Below, piece by piece: positions 45,841-56,642 of a stretch of 64,000 nt of DNA. The notes below the pieces were generated by a model. The model ran no database searches. It saw only the letters and a list, made by a program, of their open reading frames with translations, and had not been told where the DNA came from. The DNA is from an uncultured virus (IMG/VR IMGVR_UViG_3300027808_000022) (taxonomy: Duplodnaviria > Heunggongvirae > Uroviricota > Caudoviricetes), in the IMG/VR virus record IMGVR_UViG_3300027808_000022; one strand, 5' to 3'. Within the stretch, counting starts at the first letter, position 1; every line of letters starts with the position of its first letter. A program made the translations under genes and the position numbers.

Positions 45841-45918
45841 AATGAAATTATTTCTTAATAAATAGTTGTTGATATAAAAAAGTATATTTATATTTGTTGA
45901 AATGTTCTTTGAAATTAT

Positions 45919-46304
45919 GGGGATGACACAGATTCGATTGGCGTAGTTAGTCAATGGGTGCATGTATGAGCTGAAATAACTCATTAAAAACTGGTTCAAA
46001 AAATTAAACGGAAACGTTTTAGACAAAATGGCGACTATCGGATTAATCCGTGAAAACGCTTCTGTAGTAGCCTAATCGCTATTACAAAACAGGTCGGGAG
46101 ACATACAACCTAGGAACAGAAGTCTTTTAAAGGTGTAGTTTCTATCTTAAAAGAAACAAGTGGAGGATTAGTTCTCAGTAAACCAAACCACTATAAAATA
46201 AGGGAATTGTGAATTTCGGAACATTAGAAAATGTTGACCTAAACATGTAGTACCTCTTGGGTAAGACGAGCAAGACCGGGGGGCAGTACCTCGCATCTCC
46301 ACCA
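45919..46304 (+). ncRNA. ssrA: tmRNA (one-piece)
   Basis: 5' GGGGATG pairs with 3' CATCTCC-ACCA and has G3.U70; T-arm CGGGG-GGCAGTA-CCTCG; internal tag frame 46010-46075 GNVLDKMATIGLIRENASVVA*; terminator directly after. Confidence 0.92.
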
Positions 46305-46307
46305 AAT

Positions 46308-46337
46308 AAAAAAACCCATCTTTACGGATGGGTTTTT
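46308..46337. terminator. Terminator after tmRNA
   Basis: aaaaaaacccatc-tttacg-gatgggttttt. Confidence 0.8.
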
Positions 46338-48640: not shown

Positions 48641-48707
48641 TAGTAAAAATATATTGTTTAGTAAATAAATACAAAAAAACCTGATATAAATCAGGTCTTT
48701 TTAAATT

Positions 48708-48893
48708 TTATTCACCACTTGGTATAAACATCCATAACAACAAATATGTTATACCAATTGGAAATGGATAAAAAAGTAATACCACGGAAAATACACGAAG
48801 AAAAATTGGGTCAATATTCATACGGTATGCGATACCAGCACATACACCACCGATTACTCGGTCTACTTTTGGTCTATACATTTTTTGTTTCAT
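48708..48893 (-). CDS. PspC-domain protein
   Basis: YR...DRVIGGVCAGIA....DP...R...YLLLWMFIP. Confidence 0.88.
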   Translation of the reverse strand: MKQKMYRPKVDRVIGGVCAGIAYRMNIDPIFLRVFSVVLLFYPFPIGITYLLLWMFIPSGE

Positions 48894-48894
48894 T

Positions 48895-48971
48895 TGGTGG
48901 ACCCTGTAGGGCTTGAACCTACGACCTACTGATTATGAGTCAGCCGCTCTGACCAACTGAGCTAAGGGTCC
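48895..48971 (-). tRNA. tRNA-Ile2(CAU, lysidine-type), less likely Met
   Basis: GGACCCTTAGCTCAG...CTCATAA...ACCA; body resembles bacterial Ile2. Confidence 0.8.
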
Positions 48972-49000
48972 ATTGTTATACAAAGATAATAAAAAAATTC

Positions 49001-49423
49001 TTAATCCCACCAATGTTCAATTTTTTGTTCAAGAATTTTAAATAATAAACGTTTAGCTTTATTGTGCTTATCTGTTACCATTTTAAGAGCTTCAGATGAC
49101 CGTTTATCTAACTCATAAAACCCATCATAATATGATTCATTTTGTATTTTATCAATTAACCTAACACAAGTCATCATTAACTCAGCATCACGTTCAGAAC
49201 TTTCATGAGAACCATATTTAACAAGATGTTTGGCTTGTTTTTCTAACTTGAATTTTAATACCTGAAAAACATAATGGTGGTCCCAATCCCTATCTTTCCA
49301 TATTATCCAAAACCATTTATATAGGTTCTGAACTCCATACTTAATGTATTTGTGTTGGTTGGGTAGTTCCCATCTTACCCATCTGTAAAGTTTCCAATAC
49401 CATTCGTTATATTCTGTGTTCAT
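49001..49423 (-). CDS. Hypothetical Trp-rich phage protein
   Basis: 140-aa ORF, WKDRDWD...WWD. Confidence 0.7.
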   Translation of the reverse strand: MNTEYNEWYWKLYRWVRWELPNQHKYIKYGVQNLYKWFWIIWKDRDWDHHYVFQVLKFKLEKQAKHLVKYGSHESSERDAELMMTCVRLIDKIQNESYYDGFYELDKRSSEALKMVTDKHNKAKRLLFKILEQKIEHWWD

Positions 49424-49437
49424 AGTTATGATTTTAG

Positions 49438-49511
49438 TAGACGAGAAGGGACTTGAACCCCCAACCTTGATGATATAAGCATCCTGCTCTAACCTGTTGA
49501 GCTACCCGTCC
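49438..49511 (-). tRNA. tRNA-Ile(UAU)
   Basis: Anticodon arm GATG-CTTATAT-CATC; cloverleaf with TTCAAGT T-loop. Confidence 0.85.
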
Positions 49512-49516
49512 AAATA

Positions 49517-49702
49517 TTAGTTGAAATGAGTACAATCCCCTTGAGTATTATCCCACGGGCATATGTACATTTCTGGTTGGGTATGTATGTAAACTCCATC
49601 AACACCAAAGTTGTCATTTTCACCATACAACCCAAGTGACTGACTTAATTCTGTCAATTCGGTTAAAAAATCTTCCTGCGTCATTTGAGTCTTGGGGTCC
49701 AT
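49517..49702 (-). CDS. Hypothetical protein
   Basis: 61-aa ORF between tRNAs. Confidence 0.45.
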   Translation of the reverse strand: MDPKTQMTQEDFLTELTELSQSLGLYGENDNFGVDGVYIHTQPEMYICPWDNTQGDCTHFN

Positions 49703-49715
49703 GATTATTGTGTTT

Positions 49716-49792
49716 TGGAGCCTGAAGACGGACTCGAACCGCCAACCCCCTGATTACAAGTCAGGTGCTCTACCAATTAAAGCTATTCAGGC
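49716..49792 (-). tRNA. tRNA-Thr(UGU)
   Basis: CCTGA-CTTGTAA-TCAGG; encoded CCA. Confidence 0.92.
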
Positions 49793-49811
49793 ATTTATGT
49801 TTTAATATATA

Positions 49812-50099
49812 TTACTTTCCTTGTTTTTTGTAAACATAAGTGATGGTATCACCAATGTTGTACTTCCTCAAAGAAGTAAACTCACTGCTGTCTGACATGA
49901 AATACTTGTACTTCCTGTCAAGTTCAATTGTGCTGTGAGGTGGCAATTGAACCATTGAATCAATAACGAACTTTTCAACTACATCACCTTTTTCAATCAA
50001 AGGTTTCTGTTTACAAGCTCCTAACATAGTGGCAAGAATAATAGATAAAATAATCCATAAGGAAAAATAAAGTCGGGGGTCTTTTAATATGTTTTTCAT
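49812..50099 (-). CDS. Putative membrane/lipoprotein
   Basis: Hydrophobic N-terminus ending LGAC; start after TACCTTTG promoter. Confidence 0.55.
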   Translation of the reverse strand: MKNILKDPRLYFSLWIILSIILATMLGACKQKPLIEKGDVVEKFVIDSMVQLPPHSTIELDRKYKYFMSDSSEFTSLRKYNIGDTITYVYKKQGK

Positions 50100-50100
50100 G

Positions 50101-50652
50101 TTACAAAGGTAATATATTTTTTTCAAAGTTTTTTACATAATTGTCAACTATGTGTTGAATTTCATTTTGATATCTACTATGAACATACTGATGATGTGTT
50201 GGACATAATGGTACCAAGTTTTTTGGTTCGTTATTTTGGTGATTATTGTCATAATGATGGATAGTCACAATTTTATTTTCACTACAAATAATACATTCTT
50301 TTTTGTGATAATTAAAACCAATTCTTCTATAACCGTTACGTTCTTGACTATCACCAAAATTTCCCCAATTTGGGTTATTTTCACCACTTCTAAAAAAGGT
50401 GTTTGAACAAGAATAAGAACATGTTGTTCTTTCTTCTTTCCCTCCAACTTTTGTTTCAAATTGAATATCACAAACAGGACACAATTTAATAACTGATTGG
50501 TATTTTATTTCTCGACTTCTTAAATGCGAAACGTCAATTTTATTTTCAACAATGAAATTTTCAAATTTTTTTCGAGTTTTTCCATTGTCAAAACCATAGA
50601 GTTTTTTAATAGCTTCAGCCCTTGTCTTAGAATTTTTAATTATTTCTACCAT
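50101..50652 (-). CDS. HNH endonuclease inside tRNA array
   Basis: CPVC..TCSYSC, GENNPNW, CIICS...IHH.D.N..NN...NL..LCPTHH. Confidence 0.85.
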   Translation of the reverse strand: MVEIIKNSKTRAEAIKKLYGFDNGKTRKKFENFIVENKIDVSHLRSREIKYQSVIKLCPVCDIQFETKVGGKEERTTCSYSCSNTFFRSGENNPNWGNFGDSQERNGYRRIGFNYHKKECIICSENKIVTIHHYDNNHQNNEPKNLVPLCPTHHQYVHSRYQNEIQHIVDNYVKNFEKNILPL

Positions 50653-50714
50653 ATATAATAAATATATTGATTGTCGTTAAAATTAGATTTGGTCAAATAT
50701 TTTTTTAACGATTG

Positions 50715-50790
50715 TAGCGTAGACTGGATTCGAACCAGCGTGCCTCTGCTCCCAAAGCAGATGAGATAAACCTGACTCCTCTACTACGCT
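50715..50790 (-). tRNA. tRNA-Pro(UGG)
   Basis: TCTGC-TTTGGGA-GCAGA. Confidence 0.85.
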
Positions 50791-50799
50791 ATTTGTTTG

Positions 50800-50869
50800 T
50801 GGACACTGTGGGAATCGAACCCATACGTTCTGATTGCAAATCAAACGGTCTGCCGTTGACATCAGGCCC
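50800..50869 (-). tRNA. tRNA-Ala(UGC), atypical
   Basis: TTTGA-TTTGCAA-TCAGA; G3.U70 present; irregular acceptor and D arms. Confidence 0.7.
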
Positions 50870-50880
50870 TTTTATTTTTG

Positions 50881-50952
50881 CGGTCCCACCGGGAATCGAA
50901 CCCGGCACTTTGCCGTGACAGGGCAATATTATAGCCGATTAACTACAGGACC
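50881..50952 (-). tRNA. tRNA-Asp(GUC)
   Basis: TTGCC-CTGTCAC-GGCAA; G73. Confidence 0.9.
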
Positions 50953-51020
50953 GTAAGTTAGTAAACCCGGGCCCAACAAGCCGTGATAAACACGGAAGGG
51001 CCCTTTTTAAGATTTACTTT

Positions 51021-51096
51021 TGGAGCGAGAGACCAGGTTCGAACTGGCGACCCTCAGTTTGGTAAACTGATGCTCTACCGACTGAGCTACTCTCGC
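51021..51096 (-). tRNA. tRNA-Gly(ACC)
   Basis: TCAGT-TTACCAA-ACTGA; GCG acceptor, U73, CCA. Confidence 0.88.
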
Positions 51097-51101
51097 TTTT
51101 G

Positions 51102-51173
51102 AGCGAGTGGGGAGAATCGAACTCCCATATCCAGCTTGGAAGGCTGGAGTAATAGCCTTTATACTACACTCGC
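51102..51173 (-). tRNA. tRNA-Gly(UCC)
   Basis: CCAGC-CTTCCAA-GCTGG; U73. Confidence 0.9.
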
Positions 51174-51180
51174 TTTTTTC

Positions 51181-51262
51181 GAGTCAGAGTAGTCACGGCC
51201 ACCTCTTATCCTTCTGACTCTTGATGTAAAAGTGGCCAATGTGGCACGACCCAAGTTACATC
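51181..51262 (-). ncRNA. Candidate two-hairpin (kissing-loop) RNA
   Basis: Stems GATGTAA/TTACATC and GAGTCAGA/TCTGACTC with complementary loops GGCCAC/GTGGCC. Confidence 0.5.
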
Positions 51263-51265
51263 CAT

Positions 51266-51339
51266 TGGTTGCGGACCCGAGACTCGAACTCGGAACTATG
51301 GGTTATGAGCCCATTATGTTACCATTACACCAACCCGCG
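51266..51339 (-). tRNA. Initiator tRNA-fMet(CAU)
   Basis: C1:A72 mismatch, GGG/CCC anticodon stem, CTCATAA loop, CCA. Confidence 0.9.
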
Positions 51340-51348
51340 ATTTATTTG

Positions 51349-51420
51349 TACTCGGTAGGGGAGTCGAACCCCTCTTTCCAGGATGAAAACCTGGCATCCT
51401 AACCGATAGATGAACCGAGC
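51349..51420 (-). tRNA. tRNA-Glu(UUC)
   Basis: CCAGG-TTTTCAT-CCTGG. Confidence 0.9.
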
Positions 51421-51433
51421 AATTATTTTTTTC

Positions 51434-51455
51434 TTACCAATACGTCAAAGAACTT
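51434..51455 (-). promoter_or_regulatory. boxA-like element before tRNA array A
   Basis: AAGTTCTTTGACGTATTGGTAA, identical to 58371-58392. Confidence 0.65.
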
Positions 51456-51486
51456 TTTTGTTCTGTTGTCTTATTCAACAACAATA

Positions 51487-51518
51487 CAAAGTTAATACAT
51501 TTTTTTAATACTACCAAA
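51487..51518 (-). promoter_or_regulatory. Bacteroidota sigmaA-type promoter between attenuator A and array A
   Basis: TTTG-N20-TAACTTTG. Confidence 0.6.
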
Positions 51519-51525
51519 CAAACAC

Positions 51526-51557
51526 AAAAAAAACCCATCCTTTCGAGATGGGTTTTT
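51526..51557 (-). terminator. Attenuator terminator A
   Basis: AAAAACCCATCT-CGAAA-GGATGGGTTTTTTTT; 5' arm complementary to GAGATGGG in leader A. Confidence 0.85.
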
Positions 51558-51578
51558 GTAAGATATTTTTTTACAATA

Positions 51579-51647
51579 TTATCCCATCTCCACTTTGGAA
51601 GTATCAGCCTCTGTTGCTGGTGTGCCGAATATGAATATGGTTTTCAT
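51579..51647 (-). CDS. Leader peptide A (22 aa) MKTIFIFGTPATEADTSKVEMG
   Basis: ATG..TAA read directly; A-rich start; ends in anti-terminator sequence. Confidence 0.75.
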   Translation of the reverse strand: MKTIFIFGTPATEADTSKVEMG

Positions 51648-51704
51648 TGAATGTATTATTATTTGATTTCTTATTAAATATAATAAACTTTTAAAAAGTG
51701 TCAA

Positions 51705-52979
51705 TTAAAACGCCAAAGAATTTACATAACTTACCGATTTTTGTACAGACTTTTCAATTGTTTTAATAATTGAGTCCAAATTTAACTCGGCAACATTACC
51801 AATTGAGATTCTAAACCATCCTTTGTTACTCTTTGAACCAAAATATTCAAACGGAACAATTCCCAACCCACAGGTATTAATTAAGAACGAAATATACTCT
51901 TCTGTGGATGAAAATGAATGAACATAACCCAAGTAAACCGAAATATAAATTCCACCATCAGGTTTTTGGTAATCAACATTATGACCTTTGTTTTTCAATT
52001 CTTCCAACTTGTCACAGATTTTATCTGATATAAATTCATACGATTTTGTTACATAGTTTATGTGAGAAATGTAATCTTCATAATCTACTCTGATGTACGC
52101 ATCCAATGCTCGTTGTTCAGGTTTTGGTGCCCATGCTCCAATGTGAGACAAAACTTCGGTTATCTTTCCAATAATATCTTTTGGACCAAACAACCAACCA
52201 ACACGAACACCAGTTGCGTTTAATGATTTTGAAATACCATCAGCACAAATCAAATAATCTCTGATTTCAGGACATAAAGTTAATGGGTGGATAAACAAAC
52301 CTTCTTTGGTGATGTCAGAATAAATCTGGTCAAAGAACAAATACAATGGTCTTGAACCTACTTGTGTTGACCTGATTTTATTTTCTCTCACAATCAACTC
52401 ACAAATACCTTTCAGAACTTCGGGGTCAATTACACGACCTGTTGGATTTTGTGGCGAACAAATGCAAACCAATGATGTTTTATCACTTATTCTACCGTCA
52501 ACATCTTCAACGGTTGGAAAAAATGAATTTTCAGGTGTACATTCAATTTCTTCTTTTTGTGCATTATGTAAAAAACAATAGTGGTTATTATTCCAAGATG
52601 GTACAGGATAAATCACCTCTTCATTCGGATTTACCGTGGCTTTATAAACCGTATAAATCAATGGACGAACTCCACCACCAATTAAGATTTCTTCAGGTGA
52701 ATAATCAACATTGAACTGATGTTTAATGTGTTTGGAAACAGATTCCCTTAATTCAAGTTCTCCTTGTGAGTTTGGATAGTTGGTTAAATCCCACTCGTAA
52801 GCATCTTGAATGTGTTTTCTTAATTTTGAGGGTATTGGCCATAGTTTGGAATTAAAGTCACCTATGGTTAGGTTAGATACTGGTTTTGTTTTAGCAATTT
52901 CTTTGATTTGTTGTGAGATTTTAATAATTTCAGAGCCAACAATATTGTTCCCTACATTTGATAATTTTTCCATTATCAA
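51705..52979 (-). CDS. Class I/II PLP-dependent aminotransferase (aspartate aminotransferase-like)
   Basis: CSPQNPTG, FDQIY, DGISKSLNATGVRVGW, WFRIS. Confidence 0.9.
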   Translation of the reverse strand: MIMEKLSNVGNNIVGSEIIKISQQIKEIAKTKPVSNLTIGDFNSKLWPIPSKLRKHIQDAYEWDLTNYPNSQGELELRESVSKHIKHQFNVDYSPEEILIGGGVRPLIYTVYKATVNPNEEVIYPVPSWNNNHYCFLHNAQKEEIECTPENSFFPTVEDVDGRISDKTSLVCICSPQNPTGRVIDPEVLKGICELIVRENKIRSTQVGSRPLYLFFDQIYSDITKEGLFIHPLTLCPEIRDYLICADGISKSLNATGVRVGWLFGPKDIIGKITEVLSHIGAWAPKPEQRALDAYIRVDYEDYISHINYVTKSYEFISDKICDKLEELKNKGHNVDYQKPDGGIYISVYLGYVHSFSSTEEYISFLINTCGLGIVPFEYFGSKSNKGWFRISIGNVAELNLDSIIKTIEKSVQKSVSYVNSLAF

Positions 52980-56562: not shown

Positions 56563-56564
56563 TG

Positions 56565-56642
56565 TAGTCAGGACAGGATTCGAACCTGTAACACCGGTTT
56601 GACCACTTACGTGGTTGCGTCTATCCATTCCGCCACCTGACT
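56565..56642 (-). ncRNA. tRNA-Leu-like RNA with GNRA tetraloop in place of the anticodon loop
   Basis: Perfect acceptor AGTCAGG/CCTGACT with A73, Leu-type D arm GGCGGAATGGATAGACGC, perfect T arm; anticodon arm ACCAC-GTAA-GTGGT. Confidence 0.7.

Follow-up and report, generated by a model that had tools for sequence, protein, structure and literature searches.

We have found a 22-codon open reading frame (ORF), an intrinsic terminator and an alternative helix that joins the two in front of the tRNA genes of a phage transcription unit. This element, here called unit A with leader A as its ORF, lies on the minus strand of a 64,000-nucleotide stretch of DNA (the window) from IMGVR_UViG_3300027808_000022, an IMG/VR record of an uncultured virus of the Caudoviricetes; its coordinates are collected in Table 1. 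The sequences of the unit and of its relatives indicate that it is probably a ribosome-mediated (leader-peptide) transcription attenuator, and that the phage probably makes more of the tRNAs encoded in the unit when ribosomes decode more slowly. An earlier note on this DNA had seen here an attenuator matched to the downstream tRNAs, and this proposal is supported by the conservation of the reading frame, the covariation of the helix, the linkage to tRNA arrays, the composition of the leader and the positional profile of its matched codons.

Leader A encodes MKTIFIFGTPATEADTSKVEMG and is present as claimed, together with the two pairings that the note had described. The strand GAGATGGG, which runs across codons 20-22, is the exact 8-nt complement of the terminator 5' arm CCCATCTC, and an inner stem TTGTAA/TTACAA is found in the loop of the antiterminator formed by them. 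Shuffling the 70 nt upstream yields a complement of at least 8 nt in 22 of 20,000 trials. Among the 25 terminator-like hairpins of the 64-kb window such a complement is seen upstream of two, at 51557 (8 nt) and 58432 (9 nt), both of which head tRNA arrays; the other 23 have at most 6 nt, including the terminator of the phage transfer-messenger RNA (tmRNA) gene at 46311, which has the identical CCCATC/GATGGG stem. Taken as isolated hairpins, antiterminator and terminator differ little in energy (-14.9 and -14.7 kcal/mol, respectively), and the former emerges first during transcription, which counts for an attenuator, and the fold of the whole leader uses the helix GAGAUGGG/CCCAUCUC. In equilibrium folds with the 5' part blocked the terminator forms in both the 'stalled' and the 'at stop' cases, so that the switch, if real, must be kinetic. 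The inner hairpin (-1.8 kcal/mol and z = -2.8 in the window, z = -4.6 in the related locus L010) was considered as a feature of the family and rejected, with a mean z of -0.25 and z below -1 in 8 of 37 sequences; it is lineage-specific.

The family was widened by three scans, anchored on the end of the leader, on the terminator sequence and on the promoter-like site P1 in front of the leader. The scan for the leader end gave 8 loci with one new context (L048, which has a different upstream gene), that for the terminator 48 viral loci, and that for P1 at least 119 loci, 75 of them distinct among the matches listed, mostly leader-plus-terminator units. A search of a phage collection returned no relative of leader A, only tRNA-Glu matches in 20 records, and the pattern GAGATGG..CCCATCTC met mostly unrelated hairpins at its at least 120 loci in viral contigs; among the matches listed four have a boxA-like word downstream, and two of these are relevant. 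An aminotransferase homologue lies within 1.5 kb upstream in just 4 of 53 distinct contexts of the leader family, which ties the unit to the tRNA arrays rather than to the aminotransferase gene that precedes it in the window. At the 48 loci with the same terminator, an upstream complement of at least 6 nt is present in 27 of the 33 with tRNA genes or a boxA next, versus 1 of the 15 without. The earlier note had considered that the terminator might serve only the aminotransferase gene; this is very unlikely, for the unit accompanies tRNA arrays and its frame is kept.

Relatives of the aminotransferase gene itself were found at 41 viral loci, in six of which tRNA-Glu lies 260-288 nt past the stop codon. 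The intergenic DNA of L006, L002, L010 and L037 carries homologues of the leader, the terminator, the TAnnTTTG motif and the GTTCTTTGAC motif, and in L037 an insertion separates the leader unit from the tRNA genes. The leader is absent from aminotransferase relatives without tRNA genes. In L003, L004, L005, L039 and L009 a small lipoprotein-like gene with its own terminator takes the place of the leader; this gene (MKNTILTLFTIVALASCG...), located within 320 nt past the stop codon of the aminotransferase gene, is preceded by a similar promoter, TTGAC..TATATTTA, and followed by a terminator of the CCCAC type, and its C-terminus ..DTAKVETK resembles by eye the ..DTSKVEMG of the leader, by common origin or by chance. 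In L028 the region 60-330 nt past the aminotransferase stop codon contains a different leader, MKPINKNMISKRQPQISICWYPRITHSSVIGESNIS, together with a terminator and with motifs of the TAnnTTTG and boxA-like kinds; the array that follows reads Pro, Ile, Cys, Trp, Tyr, Gln, Met, Ser, and the leader has the run I-C-W-Y in the order of the tRNA genes.

The relatives of leader A retain the ATG, the frame and a stop codon within a few bases 3' of the pairing strand; their lengths are 20-25 codons and differ by multiples of three. In the close group of the window the codon for Gly8 is GGC, GGA or GGG and that for Ile4 is ATA, ATT or ATC, and in the variant leader L292 the stop codon comes one codon earlier, directly before the pairing strand. 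Such conservation of frame, start and stop has the appearance of a translation signature, short of proof.

Covariation of the helix in homologues had been suggested as a check on the proposal. A first alignment of 26 sequences, mostly picked by the fixed arm, had 90.4% of the antiterminator helix and 96.1% of the terminator cells paired, and both compensatory pairs came from the single lineage L010. A second set comprised 37 promoter-anchored sequences chosen blind to the terminator arm. Here 83.6% of the helix cells are paired versus 79.3% in shuffles (reached in 0 of 500), and two-sided, compensatory changes occur at four pairs (5 of 500 shuffles) and in 12 cells (0 of 500); controls in which the helix was slid were 43.5-68.6% paired. 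The pair types observed are GGAGATGG/CCATCTCC, GGAGAGGG/CCCTCTCC, GAAGAGGG/CCCTCTTC and GGAGAAGG/CCTTCTCC, to which are added GGAGGTGG with a G-U pair and GGGTGGG/CCCACCC in L010. The locus L356, in which the strand GGAGAGGG is combined with the terminator arm CCCATCTCC, looks like a recombinant of two pair types. Across 21 diverse units the longest exact complement found in the 75 nt upstream of each terminator has a mean of 6.71 nt to the arm of its own terminator versus 4.22 nt to those of others (0 of 100,000 permutations). Since the 3' arm of the terminator covaries as well, the covariation of the helix shows a three-way constraint, which an attenuator needs, and not the switch itself.

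The proposed sensor block of leader A, GTPATEADT at codons 8-16, is restricted to amino acids of the downstream tRNAs, as the note had stated: Gly, Thr, Pro, Ala, Glu and Asp are all served, Ala by a weak tRNA gene. The set E, G, D, A, P, T and I has a background frequency of 0.423, and a run of nine such residues therefore has p = 4.3e-4 per start. That both Ile codons are ATA, with Ile(tat) and an Ile2-like tRNA downstream, holds weakly, ATA making up 0.25 of the Ile codons in 11 long ORFs (p ~0.06 for two of two). The description of the leader as codon-matched was nevertheless too strong. The match lies mainly at the level of amino acids and is only partial at that of codons, and a strict codon-by-anticodon match was rejected as the main signal because it is too weak.

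For a broader test of composition 29 boxA-headed units were extracted by fixed rules, from which 18 were chosen by eye as non-redundant and 11 near-duplicates or close relatives were dropped. In the 18 units the fraction of leader residues served by the own array is 0.670, versus 0.494 under permutation (sd 0.025; 0 of 100,000). Within the A family, grouped by hand into 12 classes, the class of the window scores 0.67 and none of the 11 other A-type arrays matches as well. A repeat of the within-family test with 13 objective clusters of 75% identity, drawn from the promoter-anchored and terminator-anchored sets, gave 0.548 for the own array versus 0.472 permuted (79 of 100,000). Particular codons follow the arrays too: leaders with TTA, TTG or CTA go with Leu(taa) or Leu(tag) in the array (the window has neither in leader or array), AGA in the leader co-occurs with Arg(tct) in the array, and Tyr codons are present only where the array has a tRNA-Tyr. 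In L053 the array Asp Asp Glu Glu Val is preceded by the leader ..WDDAEEV.., and in L106 the array Pro Pro Gln Gln Gln Tyr Glu Lys Gly Thr by the leader MKTTYTYQPETKQPKGGT...

The strongest mechanistic argument is the position of the matched codons. When 36 distinct peptides are numbered back from the stop codon, the residues from -8 to -16 match the own array at 0.53-0.86 and those from -17 to -22 at 0.31-0.53. At positions -7 to -4, which are the most variable (entropy up to 3.13 bits), the match falls to 0.42, 0.25, 0.08 and 0.36, and positions -1 to -3 (V/G, M, E), which form the pairing strand, show little variation. From the first base of codon -8 to the pairing strand there are 15 nt, and the footprint of a ribosome extends some 12-15 nt beyond the A site, so that codon -8 would be about the last stall site that leaves the strand free. 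The note had conceded that the K, F, S and V codons of leader A are unmatched, which we confirm; S, K and V stand at -6, -5 and -4 in the window, so that three of these four residues are explained by the footprint rule.

The predicted promoter P1 begins directly 3' of the aminotransferase stop codon and is conserved before the leader in our alignment A1. Its spacer contains an inverted repeat, ACTTTT (51699-51694) and AAAAGT (51692-51687) on the minus strand, which is kept in relatives with symmetric changes (CACTTT..AAAGTG, GACTTTT..AAAAGTC and, in L290, TACGT..ACGTA; A1 columns ~36-52) and may be an operator or a hairpin. Downstream of the terminator a further promoter motif, TAACTTTG, had been pointed out and is indeed present. 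This putative promoter, P2, fits TAnnTTTG with a TTTG-like element upstream, which we take to be the consensus of the Bacteroidota housekeeping promoter (-33 TTTG / -7 TAnnTTTG). The family has 28 distinct spacers between terminator and boxA, 23 of them at least 35 nt long, and TAnnTTTG is found in all 23 versus 1.27 expected from shuffles; the caveat of the note that the attenuator may boost rather than gate expression was therefore right. The remaining five spacers, of 1-24 nt, have no room for a promoter. The attenuator design would thus exist in a gate-only form and in a gate-plus-promoter form, and leader A appears to be of the latter.

The boxA-like 17-mer GTTCTTTGACGTATTGG that follows P2 occurs identically before the other array of the window. 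At all 12 loci checked in Bacteroidota genomes it lies in the 16S-23S spacer, between the spacer tRNA genes and the 23S rRNA gene. By sequence it is thus an rrn-type boxA, like that of the rRNA operons of a host and located 3' of a promoter-like site, and it points to a host among the Bacteroidota. The 17-mer was found in at least 116 viral stretches, in many of which a tRNA array begins 24-35 nt after it and a small ORF and a terminator stand before it.

A sister unit, unit B, precedes the 12-tRNA array of the window. Its leader encodes MKLVNKQIVKHVIQFCQNWYLRVFSSSGVIS, whose residues 2-24 are drawn entirely from the 12 amino acids served by its own array (p = 3e-6 for 22 in a row), and it has a 9-nt complement to its own terminator arm; the spacer between terminator and boxA is 11 nt. 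The earlier note held that leader A shares no sequence with leader B and that the architecture recurs independently. The former is correct for the ORFs and incorrect for the units, which have the same terminator shape and 22 identical bases around the boxA. The recurrence likewise stands and its independence is doubtful, in view of these 22 shared bases and of leaders of the B kind behind an A-type promoter in L345 and L445. Unit A is the weaker of the two copies of this phage, with a shorter matched block and an internal promoter.

We propose the following mechanism. Transcripts would start at P1, at an inferred position of ~51670, and carry the 22-codon ORF, whose last codons (GAG AUG GG) can pair with the terminator 5' arm to form an antiterminator that excludes the terminator. 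A fast ribosome would reach the stop codon and cover GAGAUGGG, allowing the terminator to form and transcription to end at ~51526. A ribosome lingering at codons 2-16, above all in the Gly/Thr/Pro/Ala/Glu/Asp block, would leave GAGAUGGG free to pair with the emerging CCCAUCUC, and RNA polymerase would then pass the boxA into the genes for Glu, fMet, Gly, Gly, Asp, (Ala), Pro, Thr, Ile and Ile2 tRNAs. This would constitute a product feedback, in which slow decoding raises the synthesis of the tRNAs served and their accumulation leads to fast reading of the leader and less read-through. In unit A the promoter P2 would give basal expression, the attenuator adding to the output rather than gating it; in unit B and behind the five short family spacers, where there is no room for P2, the attenuator would be the only entry. 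RNA-library data are compatible with read-through transcripts and prove nothing. Six RNA-library runs contain parts of the stretch, and the assembled contigs of four were examined: a contig of X17 (168 letters, 3 differences) covers 51657-51490, spanning the leader, the terminator and 36 nt beyond, and contigs of X15 cover 51555-51477 and 51506-51366. X17 has no coverage of 51658-51714, from which nothing is concluded. Such contigs cannot show RNA starts, ends, strand or level, and most of their depth lies on tRNA genes and may come from other organisms.

Several observations weigh against this interpretation. The single-sequence signal in leader A is modest (p = 0.03 for at least 12 of 18 matched residues), and strict wobble rules leave only 8 of 17 sensor codons of leader A, and 298 of 678 family-wide, decodable by the tRNAs of the array. 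The K, F, S and V residues of leader A are served by array B only or by nothing in the window, the weak tRNA-Ala gene (50800-50869, minus strand) scores 29.5 bits with Rfam, where the gathering score is 29, and has no ARAGORN call, and Gly(acc), a Gly tRNA with A34, has an unusual anticodon. In the broad set leader A scores 0.60 and 4 of 17 other (larger) arrays do at least as well, and the first within-family permutation was marginal (0.537 versus 0.504; 4,505 of 100,000). There are counter-examples to the codon associations: the MKTIHIILIGGTDRTEATTPMEMV group has CTA and CCA with no Leu or Pro tRNA within 3.4 kb, and L329 has Leu(tag) and no Leu codon. The helix is weakened in L356 (a G-A mismatch), in L389, L341 and L377 (~3-6 of 9 pairs) and in L448 (partial); the exact run to the own arm is only 4 nt in 5 of the 21 diverse units, and the same compensatory changes keep the leader strand similar to the terminator 3' arm. 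Folds of the window leader contain no convincing anti-antiterminator (1:2) or pause hairpin, just a hairpin of 4-5 bp before the strand. Expression of the array from P2 need not depend on read-through, and the RNA support consists of assembled contigs, in which carried-over DNA is possible.

Four other explanations must be weighed against a leader-peptide attenuator. A translation-coupled switch might report general translation capacity, such as ribosome availability, host shut-off or inhibitors, with the amino-acid match as a by-product of codon usage. The partial nature of the strict codon match would fit this, as would the N-terminal K, N, H and F residues that are unmatched in most family members, and the naked RNA favours the antiterminator in the fold of the whole leader, so that any failure of translation would open the switch. 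Codon bias, however, cannot explain why leaders match their own arrays better than the arrays of related phages; within this single phage leaders A and B each draw on the amino acids of their own array, and the match peaks exactly in the zone that the footprint permits. We consider this explanation unlikely. It is very unlikely that the leader is an RNA-only switch, in which a protein, a small RNA or a tRNA bound to the leader RNA picks the hairpin and the ORF is untranslated or its translation irrelevant. The segment GCTGATACTTC is identical in the window and in L010, where the neighbouring protein is only 67% identical, as a constraint on the RNA or on a binding site might bring about, and the conserved inverted repeat of P1 suggests an additional regulator, but the 27 Rfam matches in the window are all tRNA or tmRNA, with no T-box or riboswitch among them. 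The start, the frame and the position of the stop codon are conserved and indels come in threes; moreover, a match to the arrays in amino acids rather than nucleotides, and a profile with the shape of a footprint, need translation.

The two remaining explanations take the terminator as an ordinary one. It could end the transcript of the aminotransferase or of a small gene, the ORF being a chance frame or a relic of the lipoprotein gene and the complement incidental; a lipoprotein-like gene and terminator behind a similar promoter, with a similar C-terminus, do exist in the five loci named above, and behind the tmRNA gene the CCCATC/GATGGG stem acts as a plain terminator. Against this, 49 of 53 contexts have the unit with tRNA arrays and no aminotransferase gene, the frame is conserved and the helix covaries, and no complement is seen at 14 of the 15 like terminators that lack tRNA genes or at any of the 23 other terminators of the window, which makes such an origin highly improbable. 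The least probable explanation is that the ORF encodes a small functional peptide, for example a membrane or regulatory micro-protein, whose gene the terminator merely ends. The hydrophobic N-terminus (MKTIFIF, or MKNLHIILL in relatives) and the conservation of the peptide across many contigs could be taken in this sense, yet the four codons before the pairing strand are the most variable, the last three follow the RNA helix, the composition shifts with the content of the array, and the unit always stands before tRNA genes.

The features of unit A and its surroundings are listed in Table 1. The virus record that contains the window has 117,610 bases (CheckV completeness 39%), and DNA identical to the window is present on IMG/VR contigs of up to 294,914 bases, so that the window is a fragment of a very large freshwater phage; the DNA runs in which the stretch occurs are freshwater metagenomes. 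The window has 25 tRNA genes called by ARAGORN, a weak 26th found with Rfam and one tmRNA gene (Rfam), and no tRNA-Ser is called anywhere in it. Leader A heads the second tRNA block of the window, directly 3' of the aminotransferase gene. Between 51529 and 48703 there is no strong terminator-like site on the minus strand, a single weak site of 5 pairs (51251-51234) being listed. The genes for Thr, Ile and Ile2 tRNAs can thus be reached by read-through, yet they may have promoters of their own: the note had placed them beyond further promoter motifs, and TAnnTTTG does occur at 50111 and 48988. The Ile2 identity of the CAT-anticodon tRNA (48895-48971) is supported by its best match, an Escherichia coli gene annotated as tRNA-Ile with anticodon CAT.

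Table 1. Features of unit A, of its tRNA unit and of sister unit B (window coordinates)
Feature	Coordinates	Strand	Remarks
Aminotransferase gene	51705-52979		Pfam PF00155
Promoter-like site P1	51704-51677	-	score 11/12; predicted
P1 elements	TTGACA 51704-51699; TATATT 51682-51677 (TATATTTA to 51675)	-	
Leader A ORF	51647-51579	-	22 codons + TAA; encodes MKTIFIFGTPATEADTSKVEMG
Proposed sensor block GTPATEADT	51626-51600	-	codons 8-16, GGC ACA CCA GCA ACA GAG GCT GAT ACT
Antiterminator 5' strand GAGATGGG	51590-51583	-	across codons 20-22
Inner hairpin TTGTAA-N9-TTACAA	51576-51556	-	in antiterminator loop; arms 51576-51571 and 51561-51556
Intrinsic terminator	51557-51526	-	hairpin called at 51557-51529, 12 pairs, then T run
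Terminator 5' arm CCCATCTC	51552-51545	-	
Terminator 3' arm GGATGGG	51540-51534	-	
Terminator T tract	51533-51526	-	
Internal promoter-like site P2	51522-51487	-	predicted; TTTG/TTGG stretch 51522-51511, TAACTTTG 51494-51487
boxA-like 17-mer GTTCTTTGACGTATTGG	51453-51437	-	
Proximal tRNA array	50714-51420	-	Glu(ttc), initiator-like Met(cat), Gly(tcc), Gly(acc), Asp(gtc), weak Ala(tgc), Pro(tgg); ARAGORN/Rfam
Distal part of same-strand unit	48672-50652	-	
HNH-like ORF	50652-50101	-	distal unit
ORF	50126-49812	-	distal unit
tRNA-Thr(tgt)	49792-49716	-	distal unit
ORF	49702-49517	-	distal unit
tRNA-Ile(tat)	49511-49437	-	distal unit
ORF	49423-49001	-	distal unit
Ile2-like tRNA(cat)	48971-48895	-	distal unit
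PspC-domain ORF	48893-48708	-	last ORF of distal unit
Next minus-strand terminator	48703-48672	-	end of distal unit
Sister unit B	58546-58374	-	before 12-tRNA array
Leader B ORF	58546-58451	-	encodes MKLVNKQIVKHVIQFCQNWYLRVFSSSGVIS
Unit B terminator	58433-58399	-	
Unit B boxA	58390-58374	-	identical 17-mer; directly before 12-tRNA array

Some further features of the tRNA genes were observed. ARAGORN calls Ala(tgc) in L002, L010 and L048 at the place of the weak gene of the window, and the tRNA-Ala(tgc) of the window phage may be decaying, yet its leader retains two Ala codons. The second tRNA-Gly (51021-51096, minus strand) has the anticodon ACC in the window and in L006 and GCC in L002, L010 and L048. 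A tRNA-like gene at 56564-56642 (minus strand; Rfam 41.2 bits) cannot be assigned by ARAGORN, which gives it a two-base 'anticodon' ta. Two spacers between tRNA genes, 51174-51265 and 50953-51020 on the minus strand, contain nested inverted repeats, including GGCCAC..GTGGCC, GAGTCAGA..TCTGACTC and GGGCCC..GGGCCC, with no Rfam family at the gathering score; the RNA-library contig of a relative differs in both of these spacers (joints 51096/51097 and 51177/51178). The ORF that interrupts the tRNA block at 50101-50652 has weak matches to HNH and RecA-dependent nucleases (E = 0.004-0.005, below the Pfam cut-offs), and relatives have differing insertions between leader, boxA and tRNA genes, the first tRNA gene lying 600-2,800 nt past the boxA in L296, L301, L306, L311 and L318, which suggests mobile insertions into tRNA arrays. 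Upstream of the tmRNA gene (45919-46304, Rfam 63.7 bits; within 45880-46336, plus strand) there are a TAnnTTTG motif and the boxA-like GTTCTTTGA (45904-45912) and no leader ORF, and downstream of it there is a bidirectional terminator with the CCCATC/GATGGG stem of the leader A terminator.

Unit A resembles the leaders of amino-acid operons (trpL, hisL, leuL, thrL, pheL; ilvGMEDA and thr) in having a short ORF with its start and stop between a predicted promoter and the regulated genes, an intrinsic terminator between leader and genes, an exclusive antiterminator that uses the terminator 5' arm and overlaps the ORF, and regulatory codons, recognised here at the level of amino acids, that precede the antiterminator strand at a distance at which a stalled ribosome leaves it free. 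The ilv and thr leaders each sense several amino acids. In contrast to these operons, no target of the trp/his/leu/thr/ilv/pheA/pheST class of enzymes and synthetases lies downstream, only tRNA genes and then small ORFs, and what is sensed would be the decoding molecule. Each of six to eight amino acids is sampled one or two times, without runs of a single codon; the folds contain no convincing 1:2 anti-antiterminator, and an untranslated leader should read through and not super-attenuate. The setting also differs, in that the phage probably infects Bacteroidota and a second promoter and a boxA follow the terminator. Another known case is the E. coli pheST leader, an attenuation control of phenylalanyl-tRNA synthetase, where the attenuator also acts on a component of the decoding apparatus and not on a biosynthetic enzyme, although pheST controls a synthetase and senses one amino acid and unit A would control tRNA genes and sense a set.

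T-box riboswitches, which stand upstream of translation-related genes, likewise couple tRNA status to the choice between terminator and antiterminator. They recognise uncharged tRNA directly, by means of a specifier codon and the T-box sequence, and need no translation, whereas unit A points to a translated ORF, and a scan of the whole window at Rfam gathering scores found no Stem I with specifier loop or T-box sequence. A boxA of the Nus-factor antitermination type stands in the spacer of E. coli rrn operons, and the 17-mer of unit A is identical to the motif that Bacteroidota rRNA operons have at this position, between 16S and 23S; unlike the rrn boxA, it heads phage tRNA arrays and a boxA-like motif heads the tmRNA gene. 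Being downstream of the regulated terminator, it would not override it. In vmlR-type antibiotic-resistance leaders a ribosome stalled on a short leader ORF is reported to shift the balance between terminator and antiterminator (PMC9226507). These leaders sense drug-bound ribosomes through specific nascent peptides, whereas unit A appears to sense the speed of decoding at codons that correspond to the downstream tRNA set. The mechanism class proposed here is therefore the known one of classic attenuation, and what would be new is that tRNA genes are its target. Literature searches, read at the level of listings and abstracts, turned up no account of tRNA genes under the control of a leader peptide, either in phages or in bacteria. 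Genes for tRNA are usually regarded as promoter-controlled (growth rate, stringent response), and we are aware of no publication in which leader-peptide attenuation controls them.

If the proposal is true, phages regulate tRNA supply by a product feedback that is read on the ribosome, large phages have a testable reason for keeping separate tRNA blocks, and the leader is a natural sensor of tRNA depletion; classic attenuation would be extended to a new class of targets and to hosts of the Bacteroidota type. The value of unit A lies mainly in its being the second case, with wide family support and clear covariation, and the footprint rule, by which matched codons end about five codons before the antiterminator, makes a sharp prediction and offers a handle for finding more such sensors. 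We further put forward, as an idea for which we hold belief and doubt in equal measure, that giant phages of Bacteroidota run array-specific 'tRNA homeostats', in which a test peptide for each sub-array samples the amino acids served within the stretch allowed by the footprint. Decoding speed would then be measured for each class of codons, and a short tRNA block would be switched on, and switched off once supply is restored, when a shortage arises from degradation of host tRNAs in infection or from anticodon-nuclease defences. The form with two promoters, to which unit A appears to belong, would combine a constitutive floor with an emergency boost.

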